From an uncultured Planctomycetia bacterium (GTDB taxonomy: Bacteria; Planctomycetota; MHYJ01; WSZJ01): a DNA stretch of 64,000 nt. Below, one piece after another: positions 22,678 to 40,826 of the stretch. Position numbers and translations under genes: made by a program. Each line of letters opens with the position of its first letter. Within the stretch, counting starts at the first letter, position 1. Below the pieces are notes generated by a model. That model was not told the DNA's origin and searched no databases. It was given only the letters and a program-made list of their open reading frames with translations. The DNA lies in NCBI GenBank assembly GCA_963706735.1, contig CAVPNQ010000161.1, positions 14,756 to 78,755 of the forward strand, in the 5' to 3' direction.

Positions 22678-24479
22678 CAGCGGACCTCCGGGAAGCGGAC
22701 CCGAACGAGGAGAACCAGGCATTCCGCGCGTCCGTCGGCGCCCTCGCGGGCGGCCTCGGCCGCGACGGTCCATTCGCCGGCCTTGAGCCCCATCACGCAC
22801 TTCGCCTCCAGCAGCTCGATCGACGTCAGGTCGATGTCGCCGCCCGGCACCGTTCCCGTCCCGGCCTGTTCGATCTTCGCGCGCCACCCGAACTGCGCTT
22901 CCAGTTCCACCCGCGCGCGCCCGGCGTCGTCCGCTTCGCACGGCCGAGCGTTGAGCGCGAGCCCTTCCGTGAACACGTCGCTCACGGGATCGCTCGCGCC
23001 GGCGCCCTCCGCGATCTCGACGTCGCGGTCGCGGACGAAGAGCGACTCGGCGCCGGCGAACGAGGAGGCGCGCTGCCCCGGGAGGCCCAGGGCGCTCGCG
23101 CGCGCGACGACCCGGGCGGTTTCGCCCTTGCGCGCCAGCGCGAGCAGGTCCGCGGCCGGCAGGCTGCCGCGGGTGGCGGCGTCCACGGCGACGACCGCGA
23201 CATCGACCGCGGAACGGCGCAGGCGCGGCTTCGCGAGCGTCTTCAAGTACGTTTCCGTGGCATCGAGAAGCGGCTCCGAAGCGGTCGCGAGCACGCGGCC
23301 CGGCTGCGTCTCGAGGCTGACCCCGTCTGCGCTCCACGCGTCCCCGCCCGTTTCCCGGACGATGAGTTCCTCCAGCGCCTCGGCGTCGATGCCCGCGCAC
23401 TCCGGGTCCTCCAGCATGTTCACCACGACTTCCGTGCCCTCGACCGGACGGAGATCCAGCGTTCGCTTCCACGCGTCCTGAAAGTTCGCGGTAAGAGCTC
23501 CGGCTTCCAGTAGCCGCAGCTTCACGCCCTCGGTCCCCGTGGCGAGGTCGCCCATTGGGTCCTCGACTCGCCGCGCCTGGAGGAGAACGGCGAGCGTCCA
23601 GCCGTCCTCGATCCCCGTCACGCCGCCCGGCACCAGCAGCACCGTCCGGCCCGAAGGACACGGCCACGTCCCGCCGGTCGCGAAGAAGCCGCGCGACGGC
23701 AGCTGGAGCTTTCCCTCCGGCTCCGTCTTCCCGTCGAACTCCCGGACCGTCCCGGGACGCGCGCAGGAGAAGCGGTAGTCCACCAGGATCGTCGCGCCGT
23801 CCGGCGCAAAGCACGGGCGGATCTCGAGCACCGTCCCGTCGAGCACCTGCCGCGAAACCGGGTCGGCGATGACCGAGTCCATCGCGATCTCAATGTCGAA
23901 GTCCGTCAGCAGCCGCCGCTGCCGCACGTCCGCCGCATGCCCCAGCACCCCCGGCAACCCCGCCACGCGCAGCACCCCCACCGTCCGCCCGCGCTTCCCG
24001 CCTGCCGCCGCCTCCCGAAGCGCCCTGTCCTGCGCTTCGGAGAGCACCCCGGCCTCCGCCCCCGCTTCCTCGAGCATCCCGGGGGCGAGGAGCAGCACGT
24101 GGGCATCGACGACGGCGCGCCGCGACCCCGCCCGCGCCAGCACGCTCAGGACGGCGGCGATGCGGGCATGAAGAGCCGCCGTCTGCCGGACTTCGAGCCA
24201 GCCGCCGGCGAGTTCCATCGAGGCGTCGTCCGCGCCCCAGGCGTCCGGGCCCAGGAGGTTTTCGAGAAGCGACGTCAGCGTCTCGCCGTCGAACGCCGGA
24301 AAGAACTCGACGCCCTCGTCGATCCGCCGCGGCCCGCCGCGACCGAGTTCCAGCCGCGGCCCCGGCCGGTCCTGCTCGGCCCGGATGAGCGCGCGCACAT
24401 CGTAGACCCGCGAGACGTAATCCGACTCCTGCGCGAAGGTTACGGCGGCGCAGAGCAGAAGTGCCGCGAGCGGTCGCAT
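22677..24479 (-). CDS. Secreted two-module protein with secretin-like modules (paralog B)
   Basis: Signal peptide MRPLAALLLCAAVTFAQE. Same two-module layout and motifs as paralog A. Confidence 0.7.
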   Translation of the reverse strand: MRPLAALLLCAAVTFAQESDYVSRVYDVRALIRAEQDRPGPRLELGRGGPRRIDEGVEFFPAFDGETLTSLLENLLGPDAWGADDASMELAGGWLEVRQTAALHARIAAVLSVLARAGSRRAVVDAHVLLLAPGMLEEAGAEAGVLSEAQDRALREAAAGGKRGRTVGVLRVAGLPGVLGHAADVRQRRLLTDFDIEIAMDSVIADPVSRQVLDGTVLEIRPCFAPDGATILVDYRFSCARPGTVREFDGKTEPEGKLQLPSRGFFATGGTWPCPSGRTVLLVPGGVTGIEDGWTLAVLLQARRVEDPMGDLATGTEGVKLRLLEAGALTANFQDAWKRTLDLRPVEGTEVVVNMLEDPECAGIDAEALEELIVRETGGDAWSADGVSLETQPGRVLATASEPLLDATETYLKTLAKPRLRRSAVDVAVVAVDAATRGSLPAADLLALARKGETARVVARASALGLPGQRASSFAGAESLFVRDRDVEIAEGAGASDPVSDVFTEGLALNARPCEADDAGRARVELEAQFGWRAKIEQAGTGTVPGGDIDLTSIELLEAKCVMGLKAGEWTVAAEAAREGADGRAECLVLLVRVRFPEVR

Positions 24480-24570
24480 GGCGCGTCCCCCAGGTGTGGT
24501 CGAAGCGTGTCCCCCGGAACATCAGACGGGGGAGAGGGGGCGCGGGTCAAGGGCATTTCGGATTTCGAGG

Positions 24571-27423
24571 CTACGTCGTCCTTGCGGGCCGCACGCAAAC
24601 CCTCACCCCGTAATACCTCGTCGCCGTCTCCGGCACGAACGCCCTCCGGTAGCAGATCCGCGCGTTGTTCGGCCCGATGAACCAGGCCCCTCCGCGGAGT
24701 GCGCGGTAGTGGCGGTACGGCAACTCGGGGCCGTTAAGGAGCCAGTTGGAGGCGGCCCCCGCCATGTCGCGGACGCCGTAGGGGGACTCGTCGGCGGGGA
24801 AGCTGCCGACGGGGCGGAGGCGGGGGCCTTCGGGGAGGGAGCCGGCGACCTGGGCGAAGCTCCAGTCGAACTCGTCGCCGAAGGGGTAGATGCGGCGGTC
24901 CACGCCACGGGCGGTCTTCTCCCACTCGTCCTCGACGGGGAGGGAGTACGCGATGCCGTCGCGGGCGGAGCGCCAGTTGGCGTAGGCGACGGCGTCGGTC
25001 CAGGCGACGCCGATGAGGGGGAAGTCGGCAGACGACAGCGCCGAGGGCTCGCCCGGGGGCGCGAGGTCGAACCGGTCGCTGCCGAATGCCAGGAACCGCT
25101 CCGTCCCCTCGCGGGGCGCCCGCGCGTGCGCTTCCCCGAACTCCCCCCGGGCGCAGAGGTCGTTCAGGAACGCGAGGTACTCGCCCGCGGTGACGGAAAA
25201 CCGCGCGACGAAGATGTCCCGGGTGCGCAGCTCCGCTTCCTCGGTCCCCCCCGCGAACACGCCGCCCCACGAGAACGGCCCTGCGGGGACCTGCACGAAC
25301 CCCGCCGGGATGTCCTCCGGTCGGTAGAGCGCGACGTCCTGGTCCCAGGGTTCGCCGCGGCGGATGAGGACGGGGAAGTGCACCGGCGCGAAGCCCTTGG
25401 CGAGGATCGAGCAGCGCCAGGAGCCGGGGGGGAGCTGGAGGCCGGTGATCGGCGTGCGGCCGACGGACCGTTCAGGGCCCGGCACGAGCCGCATGTCCCT
25501 CGTTTCGTACCGCGCGACGCGGACTTCCGCCCCCGGGATCGGCGTCGTCAGGCAGCCGGGGGAGTGCCCCCAGCGGCGCATTCCGTCCGGGACGCGCTGC
25601 TCCGGCACCATCCGGTCGCCGGGGAGCGGCTCGAGGCCGCGGATGCCGGCGCCGTCGCGCCAGACGAGCGTCAGGTCGTGCGGCGTGTCCGCCCGCCACC
25701 CCGGCGTCCGCACCGGCACCAGGCAGCGGCAGCCGTACGCCACTGCACTCACCGACAGCCGCCCGGGCGCGTCCAGCCGCCCCGCCCGCCCCAGGTGCGC
25801 CACCTGGTTGCGCAGCAGCAGCTCCTCCCCGCGGTCCCGCCGCTTCTCCGCCTCCGCCAGCCGCGCGAGGTAAAGGTCGCACAGCCCGTCCGCCGCCTCC
25901 TCGCACCCCGCGTCCACCGCCCGCGCCTGCCCGAACTCCGCCGCCGCCCCCGCGTAGGCCGCGATCCGCTCCTCCTCCAGCTCCCGAACCTTCCCGCGCG
26001 CCGCCCACAGCGGCCGCTTCGTCTCCGCCTCCCCGTGCCGCGGGATCGCTTCCTCCAGCCGCGCCACCTCCGCGTGCTGGTCGCGGATCGCCAACTCCAG
26101 CGCGTGGTACCGCGCGAGCAACGCCCTTCCCGCCGAGACCCGCGCCGCCGCTTCCTTCGCGCGGCGCTCCTTTTCGCGGACGCCGTCGATGAAGAGCTGG
26201 AGTTCGCGGTGCATCTCGAGGGCGTCCTGGAAGCGATCGCCGCGGTGGTAGGCCATGGCCTTCATGCAGAGGGCGTCGAGCTCGGGGGGGACGGGGTCGG
26301 GGGCGGAGCGGCCCGAGGCGGCGGTGCGGCGGACGCGTTCGGACGGCGTGTCGAGGAGGCCGGTACGGACGATTTCGATCGCTTCCTTGACGGTGGCGGC
26401 GACGACGGGCGCCTGCCAGGTGAGCACGGCGTAGAGGATGCCGCCGAGGGAGTAGATGTCGCTGCGCGTGTCGAGCTCGTCGAGACGCCCCTCGGCCTGC
26501 TCGGGCGGCATGTAGGCCGGCGTGCCGATCACGCTGCCCTCCATCGTCAGGTGCGTGGACTCCACGCCGGCCTTGTCCGGCCCCGCGTCCGGCCGCAGGT
26601 CCTCCGCCTCGCCCATCACCTTCGCCAGCCCCCAGTCCACCACGAGCGTCTCGCCGAACTCGCCGACCATCACGTTCGAGGGCTTCAGGTCGCGGTGAAT
26701 CACGCCCTTCGAATGCGCATACGCAATCCCCAGGCACACGTCCTGCACCACGCCCAGCAGCCGCCCGCGCGTCCACGCCGTCCGCGTCGCCACGTCCCCC
26801 GCTTCCAGCGCCCGCAAGAGCTGCAGCAGGTCGCGCCCACGGATGCGCTTCATGCAGAGGTACAGCTTCCGCCCCCCCGCGCCGTCGCTCATCGCGCCGA
26901 AGTCGTACGTCGGGACGATCACGGGGTGCTCGAGGCGCGCGGCGAGGCGGGCTTCCCTCATGAAGCGTTCCTCGTCGTGCGTCGTGGCGCCTTCCTTGAG
27001 CATCTTGAGCGCGACGTTGCGCGCGAGGTCGCGGTCTTCGGCCTCGAAGACGCGCCCGAGCCCGCCGCTGGCGATCGGCGCGCCGAGCTGGTAGCGCTCG
27101 CCCTGCGGCGCCGCCTGGAACGCCGGGCCGCGAGAACGGCGGGTGGGGAGCGAGGCCAGCCAGCCGCGCGCGCCGGGCGGCAGGTCGAGCGAGAGCATCG
27201 CCGAGCGCAGCCCGGAGTCGATCGACCGCGGGATCCCGCCATCGACGGCTTCCAGCACCGACGACGCGCAGTCGTCGTCCAGCTCCGCGGCGAGCCGAAC
27301 GCGTTTCTCCAGCCCGTCCCCTCCCATCAGGCTCGCTGCCAGCGCTTCCAGCACCTGCTCCGGCGTCGCCAGGCTCATATCGAGGGCGGCGAGGGCGAAG
27401 CGGAGTTGGGGTTCGAGGGACAT
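24571..27423 (-). CDS. Ser/Thr protein kinase fused to a C-terminal FGE-sulfatase (SUMF1) domain
   Basis: Kinase motifs ASGGLGRVF, VALKML, HRDLKPSNVMV, DWGLAK and GTPAYMPPE, then a coiled middle region. The C-terminal FGE-type domain has GFVQVPAGPFSWGG and ALRGGAWF. Confidence 0.9.
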   Translation of the reverse strand: MSLEPQLRFALAALDMSLATPEQVLEALAASLMGGDGLEKRVRLAAELDDDCASSVLEAVDGGIPRSIDSGLRSAMLSLDLPPGARGWLASLPTRRSRGPAFQAAPQGERYQLGAPIASGGLGRVFEAEDRDLARNVALKMLKEGATTHDEERFMREARLAARLEHPVIVPTYDFGAMSDGAGGRKLYLCMKRIRGRDLLQLLRALEAGDVATRTAWTRGRLLGVVQDVCLGIAYAHSKGVIHRDLKPSNVMVGEFGETLVVDWGLAKVMGEAEDLRPDAGPDKAGVESTHLTMEGSVIGTPAYMPPEQAEGRLDELDTRSDIYSLGGILYAVLTWQAPVVAATVKEAIEIVRTGLLDTPSERVRRTAASGRSAPDPVPPELDALCMKAMAYHRGDRFQDALEMHRELQLFIDGVREKERRAKEAAARVSAGRALLARYHALELAIRDQHAEVARLEEAIPRHGEAETKRPLWAARGKVRELEEERIAAYAGAAAEFGQARAVDAGCEEAADGLCDLYLARLAEAEKRRDRGEELLLRNQVAHLGRAGRLDAPGRLSVSAVAYGCRCLVPVRTPGWRADTPHDLTLVWRDGAGIRGLEPLPGDRMVPEQRVPDGMRRWGHSPGCLTTPIPGAEVRVARYETRDMRLVPGPERSVGRTPITGLQLPPGSWRCSILAKGFAPVHFPVLIRRGEPWDQDVALYRPEDIPAGFVQVPAGPFSWGGVFAGGTEEAELRTRDIFVARFSVTAGEYLAFLNDLCARGEFGEAHARAPREGTERFLAFGSDRFDLAPPGEPSALSSADFPLIGVAWTDAVAYANWRSARDGIAYSLPVEDEWEKTARGVDRRIYPFGDEFDWSFAQVAGSLPEGPRLRPVGSFPADESPYGVRDMAGAASNWLLNGPELPYRHYRALRGGAWFIGPNNARICYRRAFVPETATRYYGVRVCVRPARTT

Positions 27424-27469
27424 GGGAGCATGCTAAGAACTGCGGCGGACTTCGCGCACGAACCTTCGG

Positions 27470-27649
27470 GTGCATGGCCGCGAAAAGGCAAACTCAAAAC
27501 TGCGAAACGCAAACCAAACGCCAAAAGCAAAACGGAGAAGACAATTCACGGACGCAAGCCAATCGTCGACCTGCCTGACTTGTCGTTTGCAGTTTGTCGT
27601 TTGCTTGAGGGTTCTCCTTTTTGCGTTTGCCCTTTCCCTCCCGTCCACC
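27470..27649. repeat. Palindromic intergenic element A2 (A family, reverse orientation)
   Basis: Reverse complement aligns end to end with A1 and A3. The outer arms are near-identical, e.g. cgaaaaggcaaactcaaaactgcgaaacgcaaaccaaacgccaaaagcaaaac. The core lies at 27549-27582. Confidence 0.9.
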
Positions 27650-27739
27650 CCGCACTCCCAGCCCGCACCCCCTTGGGCGAACCACCTTGTTCCTCCCCCC
27701 CCGCGCGGCTAGAATCGCCCCTCCAAGGAGAGGATCGCC

Positions 27740-28264
27740 ATGGAAGAGCCACAGCAGCAGGTTGCACCTCCGGCGGCGCCCGCGGCGGCGGACGGGCGGC
27801 TGGACAAGCTGGTGGAGAAGATCGGGATCCTCGAGCAGCTCTTCGTGAAGCGCATCAAGGACGACGGGGTGCATGCGGCGGCGTACAGTTCGCTGCACCA
27901 GGAGATGTCGAAGTACCGGGACGACGCGTTCCGTGGGGCGCAGAAGCCGCTGTTGAAGGGGCTGGTGCTGTTGTACGACACGATGAAGAGGTCGCTGTCG
28001 GGGATGGGGGAAGGGCCGGCGCGGGAGGCGGTGGAGTTGCATGTGGAGGAGTTGCTGGAGCTGATGCACCGGCACGAGGTGGAGAAGATGTCGGAGGTGC
28101 CTGCGAAGTACGACAAGGGGGTGCAGCAGGCGCTGGGGACGGAGCCTGCGGCGACGGCGGGGGAGGACCAGGCGGTGGTGAGGGTGGTGAGGGACGGGTT
28201 TCGGTGGAACGGGAGCGTTTTGAGGCCGCAAGAAGTTGTGATCAAGACTTTCCGCCCGGCGTAG
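27740..28264 (+). CDS. GrpE-like nucleotide-exchange factor (short form)
   Basis: 174 aa. Helical region LLKGLVLLYDTMKRSL, then a C-terminal beta domain ...VVRVVRDGFRWNGSVLRPQEVVIK matching the GrpE C-terminal pattern. RBS aaggagag. Confidence 0.7.
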   Translation: MEEPQQQVAPPAAPAAADGRLDKLVEKIGILEQLFVKRIKDDGVHAAAYSSLHQEMSKYRDDAFRGAQKPLLKGLVLLYDTMKRSLSGMGEGPAREAVELHVEELLELMHRHEVEKMSEVPAKYDKGVQQALGTEPAATAGEDQAVVRVVRDGFRWNGSVLRPQEVVIKTFRPA

Positions 28265-28274
28265 ACGAACGAGA

Positions 28275-28302
28275 GTTGCGGGTTGCGGGTTGCGAGTTGC
28301 GA
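28275..28302. repeat. Four tandem heptamers GTTGCGR
   Basis: gttgcgg gttgcgg gttgcga gttgcga directly after the grpE-like stop. Confidence 0.8.
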
Positions 28303-28340
28303 GGAACGGCTGCACATGGGGCCCGGGTTGTCGCGGGCCT

Positions 28341-28482
28341 TATCTGCCGACGTTTCTGCGAAATCTGTTTTCATCTGTGTCCCCCTCGGCAGCTACTTTC
28401 AGGAATTCGTGGCCAGTCGAGGTGCATGGGCTTGCGACGGGAACACAGACAAGGCCGGATTTCGCAGAAACGTCGGCAGATA
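28341..28482. repeat. 142-bp element bounded by a perfect 25-bp inverted repeat (MITE-like or RNA/DNA hairpin)
   Basis: tatctgccgacgtttctgcgaaatc (28341-28365) is the exact reverse complement of gatttcgcagaaacgtcggcagata (28458-28482). Inner partial pairing catctgtgtcccc / gggaacacagac. The outermost dinucleotide of each arm is TA. Confidence 0.85.
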
Positions 28483-28560
28483 CATCATTTTCCAACCGCA
28501 GGTGTCGTTGAAGTTCGGTTCCTGTCGTTCCGTCGATCCACCCTTGAGAGGAGAACGGCC

Positions 28561-30150
28561 ATGGCTGACGACAAGCCCCCGATGACGTGCGGTATCGACC
28601 TGGGCACGACCAACAGCGCGATCGCCTACATCGACGAGCACGGCAAGGCGCAGGTGATCCAGAATACGGACAACGAGCGGATCACGCCGTCGGTGGCGCT
28701 CTTCGAGGAGACGGAAGTCCTCGTCGGAAAGATCGCGAAGAACTCGGCGGTCGCGGCGCCGGACCGGGTGGTGCAGTTCGTGAAGCGGCACATGGGCGAA
28801 GAGGGATGGGTGAAGACGTTCTTCGGGAAGGAGTACACGCCCGAGACGATCAGCGCGCTGATCCTGAAGCGCATCGTGCAGGACGCCGAGAAGGTGAGCG
28901 GGCGGAAGGTTGGGAGCGTGGTGATCACGGTCCCGGCGTACTTCAACGAGGTCGAGCGCAAGGCGACGCAGGACGCGGGGACGATCGCGGGCCTGAACGT
29001 GGTCTCGATCCTGAACGAGCCGACGGCGGCGGCGCTGGCGTACGGGATGGACAAGCTGGGCGAGAAGCGCCGGGTGCTGGTGTACGACCTGGGCGGCGGG
29101 ACGTTCGACGTGACGATCATCGAGATCGACGGGACGAAGATCGACGTGCTGGCGACGGACGGCGAGCGGCGGCTGGGCGGCATCGACTGGGACGACGAGA
29201 TCATCAACCTGGTGAGCGAGAAGTTCCAGACGGAGCACGGGATCGACCCGCGCAACGACCTCGAGGCGTGCCAGGACCTGCGCAACAAGGCGGAAGACGC
29301 GAAGATCAGCCTGTCGAAGCTCGACAAGGTGCGCATCCTCTGCCAGTGCCAGGGGAAGACGACGAAGGTCGAGCTGACTCGCGAGGAGTTCGAGAAGATC
29401 ACGAAGGGGCTGCTCGACCAGACGGAGACCTATCTCGGCGTCGTGCTGCAGAAGGCGAAGCTGACGTGGAAGGACATCGGGACGACGCTTCTCGTCGGCG
29501 GCATGACGCGCATGCCCGCGGTGCGGTCGATGATCGAGCGCGTGACGGGGACGAAGCCGGAGACGGGCATCAACCCCGACGAGTGCGTCGCGATGGGCGC
29601 CGCGTACTACAACGCCGTCCTCGCGCTGCAGGCCAAGCCCTCCGAGGAGCCCGCCCTGGCGCTTCAGGGAGAATCGCTCAAGGAGTCGATCGACGAGGAA
29701 GTCATGATCCTGCTGCAGGGGGTCGAGGTCACCAACGTGAACTCGCACTCGCTGGGGATCATCGGCATCCGGAAGTCGGACATGAAGCTGGTGGCGCACA
29801 AGATGATTCCGAAGAACACGCCGATCCCGGCGGAGATCACCAAGCCGTTCGGGACGGAGAAGGCGAACCAGGTCAGCGTGCAGATCAAGATTGTCGAGGG
29901 CGACAGCGACAACCCCGAGGATTGCACGGAGATCGGGTGCTGCGAGATCAAGGACCTGCCGGCGGGCCGGCCCGCGGGGTCGCTGATCGACGTGACCTAC
30001 TCGTACAGCGTGGACGGGCGCCTGCAGGTGACCGGCAAGGACCGGACTTCGGGCAAGGAAGCCAGGGTCGAGATCGTCCGGACCAGCGGCATGGATGACG
30101 CCGCGATCAAGGACGCGAAGAAGGATGTCGTCGGGATGGAGGTGGGGTAG
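28561..30150 (+). CDS. Atypical Hsp70-family chaperone lacking the C-terminal helical lid (HscC-like)
   Basis: Motifs GIDLGTTNSAIA, DLGGGTFDV and LVGGMTRMP. The substrate-binding beta domain ends at residue ~529 with no lid or EEVD tail. Only the last 529 codons of the listed 1890-aa ORF are real. Confidence 0.9.
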   Translation: MADDKPPMTCGIDLGTTNSAIAYIDEHGKAQVIQNTDNERITPSVALFEETEVLVGKIAKNSAVAAPDRVVQFVKRHMGEEGWVKTFFGKEYTPETISALILKRIVQDAEKVSGRKVGSVVITVPAYFNEVERKATQDAGTIAGLNVVSILNEPTAAALAYGMDKLGEKRRVLVYDLGGGTFDVTIIEIDGTKIDVLATDGERRLGGIDWDDEIINLVSEKFQTEHGIDPRNDLEACQDLRNKAEDAKISLSKLDKVRILCQCQGKTTKVELTREEFEKITKGLLDQTETYLGVVLQKAKLTWKDIGTTLLVGGMTRMPAVRSMIERVTGTKPETGINPDECVAMGAAYYNAVLALQAKPSEEPALALQGESLKESIDEEVMILLQGVEVTNVNSHSLGIIGIRKSDMKLVAHKMIPKNTPIPAEITKPFGTEKANQVSVQIKIVEGDSDNPEDCTEIGCCEIKDLPAGRPAGSLIDVTYSYSVDGRLQVTGKDRTSGKEARVEIVRTSGMDDAAIKDAKKDVVGMEVG

Positions 30151-33185: not shown

Positions 33186-33322
33186 GCGCCTCTGAACGTC
33201 CGCCGCGCGCGCGGGTTCTGGAAATCCGAGTGAGCGAACAACGGCCATTGTCGCTCCAGGCCGGCTCTTCGCGGACACCCCGAGCTGGTAGAATGCCCGC
33301 TCACGAATCTCGAGGATCGCCC

Positions 33323-34621
33323 ATGGCCCGCCTTCTCACCTGTGTCGCGTTGTTCTGGCTCCTCCTGTCCTCCGCTGCGCGAGCCGAGTCCGCTTCGGGC
33401 GTTCCCGAGGGGTACGTGCAGGTTTTCAAAACAGGGAAGATCTCCGTCTTTGCCGCCTCAAGAACGGGTCTCTCTACCGAGCAACAGAACAGGATCCTGA
33501 AAGCCCTCAAGGGGCTGCAGGATCGCTACACGTCACAGTACGGGCTCGACAAGGAGACTTACGCGCCGGGGTCGCTCAAGTCCTTCGAGATTCCGAAGGA
33601 CACCGTGGAACTCGTCATTTTCCCCGACCTGGAGAAGTTCCAGGAGTGGTGCGGAAACAAGGGCGCCGGCGGGCTCACGGCGCACGTCGGCCGGCACGAA
33701 AACGTGGTGGCGGTCCCTCTCGAGAACGGCGACATCTCGGCCGGATTCTGGTGGGTCCTGGCGCACGAGTTGTCCCATGTGTTCTTCGCACACACGCTCC
33801 GCCTCTGCGGGCCCATCTGGCTCAACGAAGGCCTGGCGGAGTACTTCGCTTCCACCAGCAAGCTCTACGTCGCGACGGATCACCCCAACTTCAAGGAGAT
33901 GATCGAGAGGCTTGATGTGGGGCGCAAGAAGCTCGGAACGGCGAACAGAATTTCCGAGATGATCCGGAAGCCGCAGGACGAATTCGGGCGGCAGGAGTAC
34001 GACGAAGCGTGGCTCCTGACGCACCTGCTGGTCACGGAGTGCTCAACGCTTCTCAATGACCTCGTCACGGCCACGCGGGAGGTCGAAACGAACGCGGTGG
34101 CGAACCTGGCCGGGGTGCAATCGGACGTGAGAAAGTACGCGGCGGGGATTCTCGAGCTGGCGTTCGGTGGGCCCGACAAGCTCCAGGCGGCAGTTGACGC
34201 GCACCTGGACGAGCTGCTCAAGAACCCGGTCGAGCCTGCAAAGATCAAGGTCCGCCCCGGGACGATCGTGCGGACCCCGGACGACCCCGAGATCGAGCTG
34301 AGGGTTCACTCGACGGAAGACCTTGTCCAGGATGACGACGGCAAGATCTACAAGGCGCGCGTGTCCACGGGCAGCCTGAAGCACCGTGCTCCCTGGCCCG
34401 CGACCGTCACGATCACCATCGCTGTCGGGGACGAGAAGGGCAAATGGTCGGAGGAGTACCTTGTGAAAAAGCCGGCCTTCATGAAAGTCGGGGACAAGCA
34501 ATCGTGGGAAAAAGAGATCCTGCCCAAATTCAAAGGCAGGCGGGTGGCGCGGATTACGGCCGAATGGACCGTAGAGGGCGGCGGCACTTACCGCGCTTCG
34601 AAGGTGTTTCAGGACAAGTAG
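33323..34621 (+). CDS. Secreted HExxH metallopeptidase-like protein (DUF1570-type)
   Basis: Signal peptide MARLLTCVALFWLLLSSAARAES. Motifs WWVLAHELSHVFF and WLNEGLAEYF. Codon usage is noticeably more AT-rich than in neighbouring genes. Confidence 0.75.
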   Translation: MARLLTCVALFWLLLSSAARAESASGVPEGYVQVFKTGKISVFAASRTGLSTEQQNRILKALKGLQDRYTSQYGLDKETYAPGSLKSFEIPKDTVELVIFPDLEKFQEWCGNKGAGGLTAHVGRHENVVAVPLENGDISAGFWWVLAHELSHVFFAHTLRLCGPIWLNEGLAEYFASTSKLYVATDHPNFKEMIERLDVGRKKLGTANRISEMIRKPQDEFGRQEYDEAWLLTHLLVTECSTLLNDLVTATREVETNAVANLAGVQSDVRKYAAGILELAFGGPDKLQAAVDAHLDELLKNPVEPAKIKVRPGTIVRTPDDPEIELRVHSTEDLVQDDDGKIYKARVSTGSLKHRAPWPATVTITIAVGDEKGKWSEEYLVKKPAFMKVGDKQSWEKEILPKFKGRRVARITAEWTVEGGGTYRASKVFQDK

Positions 34622-34681: not shown

Positions 34682-35320
34682 TTACGGCACCGTGATCACG
34701 ACCGCCCGGCACGCCGCGCTCCCGACGCGCCGGTACCCGTGCGGCCGCGTCCCGTCGAAGTAGACGGCGTCGCCGGGATCGAGCGTGAGAGGCTCCTCGT
34801 CCTTGATCGACAGCATGAGCCGGCCGCTCACCACGAAGAGAAACTCGATGCCCGGATGGTGGTGCGTCGGCGAGGTGCCCGCCTTCACCGGGTGAAACTC
34901 GGCGAGCCAGGCGGAGAGCTTCTTGTCCACCGCCGCGTGGTCGAGGGCCTCGAAGCTCCAGCCTGCGTCGCGCGCGCCGGGAGGTTCGTGGAGGCGGACG
35001 CGGCCTGCGGCGCGCGAAACCGCGATCGCGCGGCGACGGTCGGAGTCGGAGAAGAAGTGGTCGAGGCCGACGTTGAAGACGAGGGAGATGCGCAGAAGAG
35101 TCGGCAGCGTGGGGAAGACCTGGCCGCGCTCGAGCTTGGAGAGCATCGCGGGCGACAGGCCGGTGTGCGCGGCGAGCTGGACGAGGCCCATGGCCTTGCG
35201 CAGGCGAAGGGAGCGGAGCTTGTCGCCGATCGCGTAGCGGCGGAGGCCTTTGTCGAGCGTGTCCGAGAGCAGGGCGGGGCTCCTTTCCACCAGGGTGAGA
35301 ATTCGCGGGCGCCATTCCAC
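34682..35320 (-). CDS. XRE-family HTH regulator with C-terminal cupin domain
   Basis: HTH LRKAMGLVQLAAHTGLSPAMLSKLERGQ, and a cupin motif THHHPGIEFLFVVSG...GDAVYFDGTRPHGY. Confidence 0.85.
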   Translation of the reverse strand: MEWRPRILTLVERSPALLSDTLDKGLRRYAIGDKLRSLRLRKAMGLVQLAAHTGLSPAMLSKLERGQVFPTLPTLLRISLVFNVGLDHFFSDSDRRRAIAVSRAAGRVRLHEPPGARDAGWSFEALDHAAVDKKLSAWLAEFHPVKAGTSPTHHHPGIEFLFVVSGRLMLSIKDEEPLTLDPGDAVYFDGTRPHGYRRVGSAACRAVVITVP

Positions 35321-35382
35321 TGTCGTGAAAACAACCGGTCGCTTATCGGCGAAGCGGCCTTGTATTCAAAAAGTATTGAAGT

Positions 35383-35982
35383 ATGTTCAAACATGCAAGC
35401 CCCATCCACGAAAGCGAGGCCCCCGTGAGAACCCTGACCTGCGACCCCTGCGGCGCCGTCCTCCAGGCCGCCGCTTCGATTCTCGCCCCCACTCCCGCCG
35501 CCCCGGCCGCCGGGATCCCTTCCGCCTCCCCCACGCTCGTCCTGTTCGTCCGCCACTTCGGCTGATCGCTCTGCCGCGAAGCGCTGGCGGACGTCGCCGC
35601 CCGGCGCCGTGAGATCGCTGCGACGAAGACGGACGTCGTCATCGTGCACATGGACTCCGACGCGAACGCCCGCGCCGCGCTGGATGGGATCGGACTCGGC
35701 GACGTCCGCGCCATCAGCGACCCCGGGCTCTGCCTCTACCGGCGATTCGGGATCGCCCGGCTTGGCCTCCGCGAACTCCTCTCCCCGCGGTTCTGGTGGC
35801 GCGCCCTCTCCGCCGCCCGCCGCCACGGTGCTTCCCTCGAGGCCGGCGACAAGTTCCAGTCGCATGGCGCCGTGCTCCTTCACCGCGGCCTGGTGGTCGC
35901 GCGCTCCTCGGCCCGTTCCGCGGCGGACCGGCAGGACTGGGCCTCCCTGGTGCTGAGCCCCGACACAGGGAGGAAATCATGA
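35383..35982 (+). CDS. Peroxiredoxin-like (AhpC/TSA_2, PRXL2-type) thiol-disulfide oxidoreductase; candidate selenoprotein with in-frame TGA at 35563-35565
   Basis: Listed ORFs 35383..35565 and 35644..35982 are in the same frame, with no other stop between them. Read-through gives ...LVLFVRHFG-U-SLCREALADVAARRREIAATKTDVVIVHMD..., a U-x-x-C motif in thioredoxin-fold context. A hairpin follows. The start is uncertain; GTG at 35425 is possible. Confidence 0.6.
35581..35607 (+). other. SECIS-like stem-loop 16 nt downstream of the in-frame TGA
   Basis: gcgc-u-ggcgg-ACGUCG-ccgcc-cg-gcgc: 5 + 4 bp with a small internal loop. The 6-nt apical loop contains GU and lies 28-33 nt after the U of UGA. Confidence 0.45.
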
Positions 35983-36503
35983 GGAGAGCGCTCGCCCTGC
36001 TCGCGGCCCTGCTTCCCCTGGGCTGCTCTTCGTCACCCCGATTCCGCGGCGTCAGCGACTTCGACGCCGCGCGCTACACCGGGCGATGGTACGAGATCGC
36101 GCGGCTCCCGAATTCATTCGAGGAAGGGCTGACCGACATTTCCGCGGAGTACGTGCTGAAGGAGGACGGAACGCTTTCCGTCACGAACCGCGGCTGGGAC
36201 CCCGAGGACGCCGAGTGGGACGAGGCGCACGGATCGGCCCATTTCAGGGGCGACGCCCGCACCGCGGAACTGCGCGTGACGTTCTTCTGGCCGTTCTACG
36301 GCGGTTACAACGTGGTGGAGCTGGACCGGGAGGGTTACCGCTGGGCGCTCATCGCCGGCGACGATACGGACTACCTCTGGATCCTCGCGCGCGACCCGCA
36401 GCTCGACCCGGCCGTCGAGGCGCGCCTTCTGGCGAAGGCCCGCGAACTCGGATTCGACCTCGCGCCGCTCGTCCGCGTTCCTCACGGCGTCGCGCCGCGC
36501 TGA
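35979..36503 (+). CDS. blc: Bacterial lipocalin (outer-membrane lipoprotein Blc)
   Basis: Lipobox LLPLGCSS and the motif YTGRWYEIARLPNSFE. ATGA overlap with the preceding gene. Confidence 0.9.
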   Translation: MRRALALLAALLPLGCSSSPRFRGVSDFDAARYTGRWYEIARLPNSFEEGLTDISAEYVLKEDGTLSVTNRGWDPEDAEWDEAHGSAHFRGDARTAELRVTFFWPFYGGYNVVELDREGYRWALIAGDDTDYLWILARDPQLDPAVEARLLAKARELGFDLAPLVRVPHGVAPR

Positions 36504-37150
36504 CCCGCCATCGGCGCCTTCTTCCTCGCTCGCGTCCCCTTCGCCTCGTACATCGCGGCGTCGCTTCGCCGCAGAAGCGACCGTGCGCTCTCCCCCGCGC
36601 GGCGCTCCTCGATCCCGATCGAGAGGGTGACACCAAAGCGCGCCAGCAGCCCGCCGTCATGGTCGGCCAGCGCTTCCGAGAGGACCGTCCGGGCGTCCGC
36701 CGCGGCCGCTCCCGGCAGGATGACCGCGAACTCGTCGCCGCCGATGCGATAGGCGCCGTCGCCGCAGCGGAGCGAAGCACGGAGGGCGTGGCCCACCGCG
36801 CGCAGCACCTCGTCGCCGGCTTCGTGCCCGTGCGTGTCGTTGATCTCCTTGAACGCGTCCACGTCCGCGAAGGCGATGGCCAGCGGCGCTTCCCCCGCCC
36901 TGCGGACTTCACGGGCGAGGTCGTCCTCGAAGCGGCGCCGGTTGGGGAGGCCGGTGAGGGGATCGGTTTCCGAGAGGGAGCGGTAGCGGTCGGCGTCGCG
37001 GTAGAGCGCGTGGACGAAGGCCGCCAGGATGAGGCCGACGATCACTTCTGTGACGACTTCGCGCAGGTGGACGGGGAAGTGCCCGGTGTCGATCCAGTCG
37101 GTGGCGACGGGGACGAGGGCGACGAGGTAGCCCCAGCGGATGCGGTTCAC
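36482..37150 (-). CDS. Diguanylate cyclase (GGDEF) with two N-terminal TM segments
   Basis: Motifs DPLTGLPNRRRF and YRIGGDEFAVIL. The GTG start overlaps the TerC stop (GTGA). The remainder of the listed 498-aa ORF is a shadow of the terC gene. Confidence 0.85.
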   Translation of the reverse strand: MNRIRWGYLVALVPVATDWIDTGHFPVHLREVVTEVIVGLILAAFVHALYRDADRYRSLSETDPLTGLPNRRRFEDDLAREVRRAGEAPLAIAFADVDAFKEINDTHGHEAGDEVLRAVGHALRASLRCGDGAYRIGGDEFAVILPGAAAADARTVLSEALADHDGGLLARFGVTLSIGIEERRAGESARSLLRRSDAAMYEAKGTRARKKAPMAGQRGATP

Positions 37151-38094
37151 AGGGCTTCGCCCTCCGCCTTGACGGGAACAGGCGCGTGCGCCCGCGGCCG
37201 CAGGACGCTGAGCAGGATCGCGGCGCCGAGGATCCCGACGATGACGCAGAGCGAAACGAGCGGTGAGATCTTCACGTAGTCCGAGATGACCATCTTGACG
37301 CCCACGAACCCCAGCACCAGGGCGAGGGCGGGCTTGAGGTACGTGAAGAGTCCCAGCACGCCGGACAGCGCGAAGTAGAGGGAGCGCAGGCCGAGGATGG
37401 CGAAGATGTTGGACGTGTAGACGATGAACGGGTCCGGGGTGATGGCGAAGATCGCGGGGATGGAGTCCACCGCGAAGACCAGGTCGGTGAATTCCACGGT
37501 GAGGAGGACGAGGAACAGGGGCGTGGCGACGAGTTTTCCCGCGCGGCGGGTGAAGAAGCGGTCGCCGTCGTAGGTCTCGCTGACGGGCATGAGGCGGCGG
37601 AAGATCCGCACGACCGGGTTGCGGTCCGGGTGGGCGGACTCCTCCTTCTGGAACGCCAGCTTGAGCGCGGTCAGGATGAGGAACCCGCCGAAGACGTAGA
37701 TGACCCAGTGGAAGTTCGCGAGCAGGGCGGCGCCGGCCGCGATCATGACGGCGCGCAGCAGCAGCGCGCCCAGGATCCCCCAGAACAGGACCTTGTGCTG
37801 CCACTCCCTCGGCACCGCGAAGTACGAGAACACGATGAGGAACACGAACAGGTTGTCCACGCTGAGCGATTTCTCGACCAGGTAGCCCGTCAGGAACTGG
37901 ATCCCCGCTTCCGGCCCGCGCCAGATCCATACGCCCGTGTTGAACAGCAGCGCGAGCCCGACCCAGACGCCGCTCCACGTGAGCGCCTCGCGGACGGAGA
38001 CCGCGTGCGACTTCCGGTGGAACAGTCCCAGGTCGATCGCCAGCATCAACGCAACGAAGGCGGTGAAGCCGGCGTAAAGCCAGGTCGAGCCCAT
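37147..38094 (-). CDS. TerC/Alx-family integral membrane protein
   Basis: Motifs YLVEKSLSVDNLFVFLIVF and DSIPAIFAIT; about 8 TM helices. Confidence 0.9.
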   Translation of the reverse strand: MGSTWLYAGFTAFVALMLAIDLGLFHRKSHAVSVREALTWSGVWVGLALLFNTGVWIWRGPEAGIQFLTGYLVEKSLSVDNLFVFLIVFSYFAVPREWQHKVLFWGILGALLLRAVMIAAGAALLANFHWVIYVFGGFLILTALKLAFQKEESAHPDRNPVVRIFRRLMPVSETYDGDRFFTRRAGKLVATPLFLVLLTVEFTDLVFAVDSIPAIFAITPDPFIVYTSNIFAILGLRSLYFALSGVLGLFTYLKPALALVLGFVGVKMVISDYVKISPLVSLCVIVGILGAAILLSVLRPRAHAPVPVKAEGEAL

Positions 38095-38122
38095 GTCTGG
38101 ATCCTCCGTGGGTTCAGTTGTG

Positions 38123-38461
38123 TTACAGCGCGAGGTCTCTGCGCGGGCGGCGCCCTTCGCGGCCCGCGCGCTCCAGCGCCCGGGCGACCGACCTCCCGGC
38201 GCACTCCGCCGCGCGACCCACCGCGGCCTCCATGACGGTGTCCACGTCCTCCGCCAGCACGACGCCCGCGCCGCCGAGGTCCACGCTGATCCGGCAGGCC
38301 TTGTCCACCCCTCCCTTGGGGCCGTTCCGGTCCTCCAGCCGCACCGAAACTCCCGCAATCCGCGGCGCGAACCGGCCCATCGCGAACTCCAGCCGGAACT
38401 CGACGAATTCGCGGAAATCAGCGCCGTCCGGGAGGCCTCGGGTGCTCATGCGGATCTTCAT
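38123..38461 (-). CDS. HPF/RaiA-family ribosome-associated protein
   Basis: 112 aa. FREFVEFRLEFAMGRFAPRIAGVSVRLEDRNGPKGGVDKACRISVDL matches the short HPF/S30AE pattern. Confidence 0.7.
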   Translation of the reverse strand: MKIRMSTRGLPDGADFREFVEFRLEFAMGRFAPRIAGVSVRLEDRNGPKGGVDKACRISVDLGGAGVVLAEDVDTVMEAAVGRAAECAGRSVARALERAGREGRRPRRDLAL

Positions 38462-38588: not shown

Positions 38589-39527
38589 GTGGACTGGCTC
38601 AATTACCACCACCTGCAGTACTTCTGGCTCACCGCGCGCGAGGGAAGCCTCGGCCGCGCCGCACAGGCCCTTCACCGCACCCAGGCCACCCTGAGCGGCC
38701 AGATCCGCGCGCTCGAGCGCGACCTCGGCGTGAAGCTCTTCCAGAAGGCCGGCCGCCAGCTCGCGCTGACCGACCAGGGACGCGTCGCGTTCCGGTACGC
38801 CGACGAAATCTTCGGGACCGGCCGCGAACTGCTCGAGGCCCTTCGCGGCCGCGCACCCGACGCCGCGCTGGAATTCTCGGTCGGCGTCGTGGACTCGATC
38901 CCCAAGCTCGTGGCGTACCGGCTGCTCGCGCCGGTGCTGGCGATGAAGGAACCCGTGCGGCTCGAAGTGTACGAGGACCGCGCGGACCGGTTGCTCGCGC
39001 GCCTCTCCGTGCACGAGCTGGACCTCGTCATCTCGGACTCGCCCGTGCCGCCGACCGTGAGCGTGCGCGCCTACAACCACCTGCTCGGCGAATGCGGCGT
39101 GACGTTCTTCGCGCCCGCGAAGTCCGCGAAGGCGCTGCGGAAGGGCTTTCCGCGCTCGCTCTCCCGGGCGCCCTTCCTCACGCCGCTCGAAAACACGACG
39201 CTCTCACGCGGGCTCGAGCAGTTCTGGCAGCGGGCCGGCGTCCGTCCGCGGATCGTCGCCGCGTTCGAGGACTCCGCGCTTCTCAAGACGTTCGCGGGGG
39301 CGGGAAGAGGCGCGTTCGCGGGGCCGGCGCTGGTCGAGCGGGAGGTGTGCCGCGAGTACGGCGTCGCGGTGATCGGGCACGCCCCGGAGATCGTCGAGCG
39401 GTTCTACGCGATTTCCGTCGAGCGCAAGGTGAGGCACCCGGCGGTGATGGCGGTCACGGAAGCGGCGCGGGGCGGACGCCGCGAGGTGAACGTGGCGTCG
39501 ATCCCGCACCCGGGGACTCGTGCCTGA
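38589..39527 (+). CDS. LysR-family transcriptional regulator (NhaR-like)
   Basis: N-terminal LNYHHLQYFWLTAREGSLGRAAQALHRTQATLSGQIRALE wHTH, plus a LysR substrate-binding domain. GTG start. Confidence 0.9.
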   Translation: MDWLNYHHLQYFWLTAREGSLGRAAQALHRTQATLSGQIRALERDLGVKLFQKAGRQLALTDQGRVAFRYADEIFGTGRELLEALRGRAPDAALEFSVGVVDSIPKLVAYRLLAPVLAMKEPVRLEVYEDRADRLLARLSVHELDLVISDSPVPPTVSVRAYNHLLGECGVTFFAPAKSAKALRKGFPRSLSRAPFLTPLENTTLSRGLEQFWQRAGVRPRIVAAFEDSALLKTFAGAGRGAFAGPALVEREVCREYGVAVIGHAPEIVERFYAISVERKVRHPAVMAVTEAARGGRREVNVASIPHPGTRA

Positions 39528-39545: not shown

Positions 39546-40826
39546 TCAAACCGCGGCAAAGTCCCGCTCAATCCGTCGTGCTTCGGCCGCCGGCAGGCCT
39601 GCCTTCTTCGCAAACCCCGCCCATCCCGAGAGAGCCTCGCGGACTTCCCCGAGGATTTCCTTCGGGCGCCTGACCTCGAAACGGTCGGCGTCCGCGAGCA
39701 GGTCCGCGCGCGAGATGCCGTCGAACATCCCGTTCACGGACATCAGGTGGTTCCGCGTCCACTCTCCCTTCGGGTTGTGGGCGTGCGTGACGTCGTAGGC
39801 AGGCGCGAGTTCCCAGCCGGCTTCCATCTTCAGCCGGAACGCGACATTCTTGGTGTGGTCGTCGCAGTTCCGGGCCATCACGTTGAAGGACATCCGGCGG
39901 AAGACCTCGCGCATCGCGTCGTCGCCCAGGCGCAGGCGCGAAGCGGCGAGGAAGAGCTGGGCGTACGCGTGCGTGGAGCGCTTTCGGTAGTCCAGGTGCT
40001 CGAGCGCGCAGAGCGACTGGACATGGTGTTTCCGGTTCGCCTCGCGGTCGAAGCGGCGGGTCATGAAGTGTGCGCGGCCGTTTTCCTCCAGGAGCCGGCA
40101 GGGGGCCATGTCGATCCCCGCGGCCGTGGCCATGAGGTGGTAGGCGTATTCGATGCGGCCGAAGTGGGCGCCCGGCCCGAACGCGTGGTCCTTTCCGACG
40201 CCGTCGAACTTGAGGAGCCAGTGTTCGAAGCCCCGGGCGGCCTCGAACTGCCCGCTGCGGATTTCGCCGGACTTCGGATTCCACGCAACGACGGCCTTCG
40301 CGCGCGCCCCTCCCGCCGACACCCCGACGCGGATGATGTTCGCGAGCGCGGCCTGCGCTTCGCGATCGCCGGCAAAATCTCCGCGAAGCGCCCGGCGTGC
40401 GGCCTCGACGAGCGATTTCATCTCGAGGGGTTCCACGCTTTCGCGCGTTGAGCCCAGGACGGGCCTGAACTCGAGCGCTCCCATCGCGCGACGGCCCGCG
40501 TACGCGAGCCGGTCCAGCGCCGTCACTTCGTCGCGCGCAACGCCCCGGGCCGCCATCCACGCGTCGATCAGGGAGTTGCCGAAGTCGTCGGGCAGCGCGT
40601 CCGCGATCAGGCCCGGGAGGCCGCGGAACGAGGGTTTCGGGAGTTCCGGAAACGCGAACGGATCGCGGTAGCCGCGGGTGGGCATCGTGAGGGGCGCGAG
40701 TTCGATTCCGGACCGCACCCAGGCAGGGTCGTAGCCGAACGCATACGCCCCGAGCTGCGGATCGAGGGCGACAGCGCCGACCCGATTGCCCCAGATGCGG
40801 ACTTCGACGACCTCCACATGTTTCAT
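39546..40826 (-). CDS. hipA: HipA-family Ser/Thr kinase toxin
   Basis: HipA N-terminal coupling region (VRIWGNRVGAVALD) and a C-terminal kinase domain (ARNCDDHTKNVAF). 4-nt overlap with the upstream HTH gene. Confidence 0.9.
   Translation of the reverse strand: MKHVEVVEVRIWGNRVGAVALDPQLGAYAFGYDPAWVRSGIELAPLTMPTRGYRDPFAFPELPKPSFRGLPGLIADALPDDFGNSLIDAWMAARGVARDEVTALDRLAYAGRRAMGALEFRPVLGSTRESVEPLEMKSLVEAARRALRGDFAGDREAQAALANIIRVGVSAGGARAKAVVAWNPKSGEIRSGQFEAARGFEHWLLKFDGVGKDHAFGPGAHFGRIEYAYHLMATAAGIDMAPCRLLEENGRAHFMTRRFDREANRKHHVQSLCALEHLDYRKRSTHAYAQLFLAASRLRLGDDAMREVFRRMSFNVMARNCDDHTKNVAFRLKMEAGWELAPAYDVTHAHNPKGEWTRNHLMSVNGMFDGISRADLLADADRFEVRRPKEILGEVREALSGWAGFAKKAGLPAAEARRIERDFAAV

Follow-up and report, generated by a model that had tools for sequence, protein, structure and literature searches.

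A candidate U-x-x-C selenoprotein gene of the PRXL2/SELENOU-like branch in an uncultured Planctomycetia bacterium

Peroxiredoxin-like (Prx-like) selenoproteins with a U-x-x-C site have been predicted in bacteria since the mid-2000s. Here we consider a locus of this kind in an uncultured Planctomycetia bacterium (assembly GCA_963706735.1, contig CAVPNQ010000161.1, positions 14,756 to 78,755), that is, within a stretch of 64,000 nucleotides hereafter called the window, to which all coordinates refer: a gene at 35425-35982 (+) interrupted by an in-frame TGA at 35563-35565, which an earlier note on this DNA had proposed to stand for selenocysteine (Sec, U). Comparative genomics has predicted bacterial Prx-like thiol:disulfide oxidoreductase selenoproteins (pfam00578, UxxC/UxxU; PMC9312934, PMC13188914), and in the Global Ocean Sampling (GOS) data Prx-like UxxC sequences are abundant, with hundreds of them filed as 'Prx-like 1-3' (PMC2398784). 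The predicted window protein shares with these the thioredoxin fold, Sec as first residue of a U-x-x-C that replaces CxxC, many Cys homologs, and the kind of evidence, namely a conserved in-frame UGA plus a downstream hairpin. It differs from them in matching PF00578 weakly (20.9 bits), being nearer to the AhpC-TSA_2 / PRX_like2 branch, and in having an extra CDPC motif near the N-terminus and fixed neighbours, the XRE-cupin and lipocalin genes. This likeness is drawn from descriptions of those proteins, not from the reviews' reference sequence WP_010940744.1.

In the eukaryotic SELENOU proteins, Sec stands at the position of the active-site Cys of the PRXL2 motif. SELENOU1-3 correspond to PRXL2A, PRXL2C and PRXL2B, respectively, the three PRXL2 proteins being the Cys forms of this family (PMC13134290). 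The RRFG-C-xx-C-R motif aligns with RHFG-U-xx-C-R of the window gene, and Sec and Cys forms alternate there; the kinship is distant and needs a profile to be detected, and the bacterial gene has a coding-region hairpin, not a selenocysteine insertion sequence (SECIS) in the 3′-UTR. SelL (SELENOL) is also a Prx-like thioredoxin-fold protein with Sec in a CxxC-equivalent motif, but its two Sec residues (U-x-x-U) are joined in a diselenide, whereas the window gene reads U-S-L-C and has a single TGA.

An in-frame TGA at the column of a catalytic cysteine

The interval 35383-35982 (+) is a single reading frame in which the TGA at 35563-35565 is the sole internal stop. The open reading frames (ORFs) listed at 35383-35565 and 35644-35982 share that frame, and read-through gives PTLVLFVRHFG-*-SLCREALADVAARRREIAATKTDVVIVHMDSD, the immediate context being LVLFVRHFG-TGA-SLCREALADVAARRREI (in short, FVRHFG-TGA-SLCRE). 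We favour the reading, with a probability of about 0.85, that the UGA is decoded as Sec and that 35425-35982 is one gene, coding for a thioredoxin-fold oxidoreductase of ~185 residues with a U-S-L-C site. The proposed Sec codon would be the first position of the U-x-x-C, and the Cys codon at U+3 (35572-35574, +), an invariant column in our alignment A2 that falls on the second Cys of the PRXL2B CxxC, would likely supply the resolving residue.

The shared frame and its sole internal stop are as the earlier note had described them; its start at ATG 35383 is not retained. We place the selenoprotein ORF (185 codons, the UGA among them, followed by the TGA stop) at 35425-35982, with GTG 35425 as the most likely start codon, because orthologs L001, L006 and L017 have an ATG at the position of this GTG (MRSLTCDPCG...), because a Shine-Dalgarno-like GAGG lies at 35416-35419, 5 nt upstream of it, and because ATG 35383 falls inside a nearly invariant AT-rich block (35359-35392). 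The delimitation of the gene is also consistent with the single frame, with a match of 99 bits to NF040769 and with the PRXL2B profile match described below.

A homolog search returned five proteins, three of which are C-terminal fragments of 110-112 aa, that is, split orthologs. The contigs that carry the split orthologs come from eight different Sequence Read Archive (SRA) runs and present the same gene order (XRE-cupin regulator, small ORF, 112-aa ORF, lipocalin, GGDEF), and, once translated in frame, all of them have the TGA at one and the same column. The TGA is kept in L001-L008 and in L017, a GTDB metagenome-assembled genome (MAG) of Planctomycetia, which together represent four further lineages besides that of the window; the five clade lineages have 83-90% nucleotide identity, and the four come from at least eight independent SRA assemblies plus the one GTDB MAG. 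Across these, the ratio of nonsynonymous to synonymous substitution rates (dN/dS) is 0.27-0.52 upstream of the TGA (informative pairs) and 0.22-0.38 downstream, and no copy has acquired a further stop or a frameshift.

The base call itself was borne out by sequences of other origin. Logan contigs from three DNA metagenomes show no difference at 35563-35565, and one of them (run X1) is 100% identical over 35383-36065. Contigs from runs X1, X2, X3 and X9 all carry the TGA, and a metatranscriptome contig from a relative, covering 35536-35712, spans it unchanged, so that the TGA can be taken as a true base call.

The same in-frame TGA extends well beyond the clade. GTDB species representatives were scanned with a degenerate DNA pattern for FVRHFG-TGA-(S/T)xC, which occurs in 10 species (L011-L020) from three phyla: Planctomycetota, two Thermomicrobiales and one Polyangia. 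All matches whose locus reaches the gene end read through to proteins of ~200 aa. The matching Cys pattern is present in 18 species, mostly Bacteriovoracaceae, Bacteroidota and Acidobacteriota; by this strict motif, 10 of 28 reference species have TGA, and the column holds only Cys or Sec. A metagenome scan for HFG-TGA-(S/T)xC-REA returned at least 120 contigs, 80 of which were fetched; 71 of these read through for at least 100 aa, and most belong to a soil clade with FLRHFG-U-TFCREAVAEL. Because the TGA is conserved across so many genomes, its position is far beyond chance. Run X3, from aquaculture, also has a contig that agrees with FVRHFG-TGA as far as 35565 and from there runs on as ATCTTCTGCCGAGAGCAG (I-F-C-R-E-Q), which makes it a further Sec-form variant, U-I-F-C.

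Relatives with Cys show what the TGA replaces. The sole full-length match of the homolog search, P0003 from a Planctomycetota MAG (locus L009), is 54% identical, has the same regulator adjoining and reads FVRHFGCSLCREAL (FVRHFG-C-SLCREAL). The best Protein Data Bank match of the family profile is PRXL2B, the prostamide/prostaglandin F synthase (9us9, E 2e-8), and the profile alignment places LRRFGCVVCR of PRXL2B over FVRHFG[U]SLCR (family FVRHFGCtlCR), with CxxC aligned to U-x-x-C. From this alignment and from the Cys forms, the TGA corresponds to the leading Cys of CxxC. A Cys in homologs at the position of the TGA, anticipated in the earlier note, was thus found in P0003, in the 18 Cys-form species and in the CxxC of PRXL2B.

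As for family membership, 8 of 11 family members have a PF13911 (AhpC-TSA_2) match with E < 0.01, and P0003 passes both PF13911 (30.6 vs 27) and PF00578 (28.6 vs 26). With U written as C, the window protein has a single significant NCBIfam match, to NF040769 ('SelL-related redox protein'; 99.2 bits, E 2e-28, residues 48-190). The Polyangia/Thermomicrobiales UxxC relatives L019 (164 bits) and L018 (135 bits) pass the curated cut-off of this family; the Cys ortholog P0003 (117.5 bits) and the Planctomycetota UTFC clade (93-97 bits) fall below it. Given scores below the cut-off of 120, the window protein, the Cys ortholog and the UTFC clade are sister branches of NF040769, not members under NCBI's rule.

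The peroxidatic motif of classical peroxiredoxins is P-x-x-x-T-x-x-C. The corresponding R-H-F-G-U-S-L-C has Arg at the Pro position and Sec at the Thr position and so departs from the typical motif. Without the Pro and Thr of true peroxiredoxins, the product would be a CxxC-type thiol/selenol oxidoreductase and not a peroxiredoxin proper. We assign the predicted product, at the superfamily level, to a PRXL2/SELENOU-like, SelL-related branch of the thioredoxin-fold AhpC/TSA superfamily; the earlier description as a peroxiredoxin-like AhpC/TSA_2 (PRXL2-type) protein stands as to superfamily and is given up as to peroxiredoxin proper. A single-sequence AlphaFold model of P0003 had a predicted local distance difference test score (pLDDT) of 43 and was unusable.

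The window's subclade is marked by an N-terminal C-D-P-C motif (35440-35451, +), kept in the window, in L001-L008, in L017 and in the Cys ortholog P0003, and missing from the family's remaining Sec clades in the alignment and the fetched loci. This pair of Cys residues may form a second redox or metal site, or serve as an internal electron relay.

RNA constraint after the UGA and the competing readings

In SECIS elements of the E. coli fdhF type, the hairpin lies directly downstream of the UGA, within the coding region, and has G-U in its apical loop. A SECIS-compatible hairpin is present in the window at 35575-35611 (+; RNAfold -20.7 kcal/mol), with the core stem-loop GCGC-U-GGCGG-ACGUCG-CCGCC-CG-GCGC at 35581-35607. 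Its stem begins at the 16th nucleotide after the TGA, and its apical loop ACGUCG (35591-35596), which contains GU, begins 25 nt after the UGA. Loops with GU, as in the fdhF type, are seen in the window (ACGUCG), in L008 (AGGUCG) and in the soil clade (GGUC), at 17-25 nt after the UGA; the window loop differs from that type in being 6 nt long and in not having G as its first base.

More telling than the hairpin itself is how the RNA varies among relatives. Within the five lineages of the window clade, 1 of the 37 hairpin nucleotides varies (loop C to G in L008), and around the UGA, from codon -6 to +16, 3 of 21 codons are synonymous-variable vs 49 of 102 elsewhere in the gene (Fisher p 0.003); with the narrower range of codons +1 to +16 the suppression has a p of 0.05. 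In the Thermomicrobiales/Polyangia clade a 7-bp helix occupies the same columns (22-39 from the U of the UGA), with a loop AGUU that also begins 25 nt after the UGA and with three compensatory pairs (GCG/CGC to CUC/GAG), at which the amino acids change too. In the soil clade (metagenome contigs L196-L275), codons +4 to +9 (CGC GAG GCG GUC GCC GAG) show no synonymous diversity at all among 44 unique sequences, although the search pattern left their synonymous positions free, vs 0.8-2.1 bits in the flanking conserved-residue codons -6 to +3 and +10. These codons can pair as a GGC-GGUC-GCC mini-hairpin, 17 nt after the UGA, which looks like a compact SECIS with a GGUC loop. The Cys ortholog P0003 has lost this particular hairpin. 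Combined, these conservation signals indicate that the family has an RNA element just 3′ of the UGA; as to the hairpin of the window itself, they are suggestive of a SECIS role, not conclusive.

Several results weigh against the Sec reading. The fold of the window hairpin has a z-score of 0.67 in a shuffle control, and 52% of synonymous recodings (of the 17 codons that follow the UGA, at the codon usage of the window) fold at least as stably as the native sequence. GC-matched Cys forms fold as stably as the Sec form, the minimum-energy fold of a wider region pairs differently, and the stems, being invariant in the window's clade, have no covariation of their own. Stability alone is therefore no evidence, since an Ala/Arg-rich peptide in a GC-rich genome almost always gives a hairpin; the SECIS-like hairpin of the earlier note, confirmed in presence, coordinates, GU loop and distance, loses its value as evidence by itself because such a structure is expected by chance. 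As for the Sec machinery, ARAGORN found no tRNA and Rfam no element at gathering thresholds in the 64 kb window, tblastn with E. coli queries found no SelA, SelB or SelD in the window or the fetched loci, and no tRNA-Sec was found on the contigs carrying the TGA form. SelA scans (with a DNA motif and with a Planctomycetota protein) have several Planctomycetota MAGs and one Polyangia MAG among the matches listed, and none of the ten TGA-form MAGs is among them. At the protein level, the window sequence falls short of the NF040769 cut-off (99.2 vs 120 bits), and its Pfam matches are sub-threshold for AhpC-TSA (20.9 vs 26 bits) and Redoxin (18.8 vs 26.6 bits). It is the Sec machinery of this organism from which the remaining doubt on the Sec reading comes.

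UGA is not reassigned in the genome at large: TGA is the terminator of 14 of the 40 confidently called window genes, this gene included, and decoding at 35563 must then depend on local context. A GC3-based screen (GC at third codon positions) for other in-frame TGA candidates in the window, which is GC-rich throughout (63-74% in 2-kb windows), returned besides this gene only Arg/Ser/Ala-rich off-frame artefacts.

Of the competing explanations, the one that survives best, improbable as we hold it, is that the UGA at 35563 is read through without Sec, near-cognate or suppressor decoding inserting Trp, Cys, Gly or Arg to give a full-length x-S-L-C protein. Such read-through would sit well with a hairpin no more stable than chance and with a genome for which the Sec machinery is not demonstrated. 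It would leave unaccounted for that the TGA lies exactly at the catalytic Cys column, where the 28 reference species have only Cys or Sec, and that TGA is a normal terminator in the window; moreover, the constraint on the RNA at synonymous sites in three clades fits SelB-dependent recoding, and SelA is present in several Planctomycetota MAGs.

Still less credible is a pseudogene in which a nonsense mutation has turned the active-site Cys codon, TGC or TGT, into TGA. A single transversion is all that this takes, and gene callers do split the gene, but the same TGA recurs in five clade lineages with nucleotide differences of 10-17% and in numerous further species, which effectively refutes it. 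Purifying selection downstream of the TGA, at least as strong as upstream (dN/dS as low or lower), excludes a pseudogene as well, and the lack of a second stop or frameshift in any copy points the same way.

We give an equally small chance to two separate genes, an N-terminal peptide of 46-60 aa that ends at the TGA and a protein of 110-112 aa from GTG 35644 or ATG 35650, even though public gene calls (P0001, P0002, P0004, P0005) read the locus in this manner. The stretch from the TGA to the next start, 26 codons long, shows in-frame conservation of its protein sequence (SLCREALADVAARRREIAATKT), and it includes the second Cys of the motif and, by the PRXL2B alignment, the start of helix 1. A split would destroy the thioredoxin fold, and the Cys-form relatives encode the whole as one protein.

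A sequencing or assembly error with TGC or TGT as the true codon, for which nothing was found in favour, has a negligible chance and is refuted by the independent contigs that span the TGA (X1, X2, X3, X9 and at least eight independent SRA ortholog assemblies).

Decoding of the UGA as Sec thus remains our preferred reading, and the U-x-x-C selenoprotein that the earlier note had put forward as a candidate is supported by the conservation of the TGA, by purifying selection on both sides of it and by the Cys column.

Gene neighbourhood and a possible operon

A divergent regulator with an XRE-family helix-turn-helix (HTH) domain and a cupin domain (34682-35320, -; Pfam HTH_3 and Cupin_2) precedes the gene, and a Blc-like lipocalin follows it (35979-36503, +; Pfam Lipocalin_2, E 2e-42). 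The TGA stop of the selenoprotein gene at 35980-35982 overlaps the lipocalin ATG at 35979 (ATGA), which suggests translational coupling. Coordinates and Pfam matches agree here with the overlap and the divergent regulator reported earlier. The N-terminus of the lipocalin (MRRALALLAALLPLGCSS), read by eye, looks like a lipoprotein signal peptide. Every Sec-form locus of the clade, and likewise that of the Cys ortholog, has the XRE-cupin regulator next to the gene in divergent orientation, and the lipocalin arrangement is the same in L001, L002, L004, L006 and L007.

The AT-rich block in the divergent intergenic region (CTTGTATTCAAAAAGTATTGAAGTATGTTCAAAC, 35359-35392) is nearly invariant across five loci, one of them that of the Cys ortholog (54% identity). 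It is more likely to be a promoter or operator than to be coding, and as such is a candidate element common to the gene and the XRE-cupin regulator. A strict scan for a sigma-70 promoter gave no match in the intergenic region. The arrangement suggests that the XRE-cupin protein probably regulates the selenoprotein-lipocalin operon.

On the far side of the lipocalin gene, and tail-to-tail with it, lie genes for a GGDEF diguanylate cyclase (36485-37153) and a TerC-family membrane protein (37150-38358), both on the minus strand and overlapping by 4 nt; the GGDEF gene is syntenic in L001, L004 and L006. The upstream neighbour (33230-34621) encodes a 463-aa protein with a DUF1570 domain, which was first described in Planctomycetes. 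This agrees with a Planctomycetota origin of the window, to which the closest loci (L017, Planctomycetia; L009, Planctomycetota) also point. Further away, a LysR-type regulator (38589-39527, +) adjoins a HipA-like kinase with HipA N- and C-terminal domains (39546-40826, -), a pair that may be a toxin-antitoxin module. An ORF of 1890 aa (24478-30150, +) overlaps long opposite-strand ORFs and, in another frame, a GrpE-like ORF (27740-28264), and is probably a high-GC artefact.

Proposed mechanism and meaning for the family

In the mechanism that we propose, with the ribosome at UGA 35563, SelB-GTP with Sec-tRNA(Sec) would bind the mRNA hairpin at 35575-35611 and insert Sec. In the manner of CxxC/UxxC thioredoxin-fold enzymes, the selenolate would attack its oxidised substrate, which could be a disulfide or a peroxide, and a selenenylsulfide would form with the Cys at U+3, to be re-reduced by a thiol donor. 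That donor could be thioredoxin or possibly the clade-specific N-terminal CDPC pair. The selenoprotein gene would form an operon with that of the lipocalin, apparently a lipoprotein, probably under the divergent XRE-cupin regulator.

Our best guess for the substrate, by analogy, is an oxidised lipid: the gene overlaps that of a Blc-type lipocalin, its XRE-cupin regulator is conserved, and the protein is related to prostaglandin F synthase. Two points tell against it: the substrate and the lipocalin link have gene order as their sole basis, and by crude ORF calls the gene neighbourhood is not shared by the other Sec clades. Taken further, and as a speculation that we consider doubtful, the clade could be a distinct, undescribed bacterial PRXL2/SELENOU-like subfamily, with its CDPC pair, lipocalin operon and XRE-cupin sensor, that, as does prostaglandin F synthase, its nearest relative of solved structure, would reduce lipid peroxides or endoperoxides at the Planctomycetota envelope, acting on lipids handled by the lipocalin.

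The gene would be a new member, and perhaps a new subclade, of the known Prx-like UxxC bacterial selenoproteins related to PRXL2/SELENOU and SelL. With UxxC Prx-like bacterial selenoproteins already predicted, it opens no new kind of biology; its immediate use is to annotation, as gene callers break it, and each of its Sec-form relatives, into a pair of meaningless ORFs, and the family is consequently under-counted in databases. Sec forms of the PRXL2/SelL-related family are common, occurring in Planctomycetota, Chloroflexota (Thermomicrobiales), Myxococcota (Polyangia) and a large soil clade, and the survey adds data on how frequently Cys and Sec interchange at a CxxC site.

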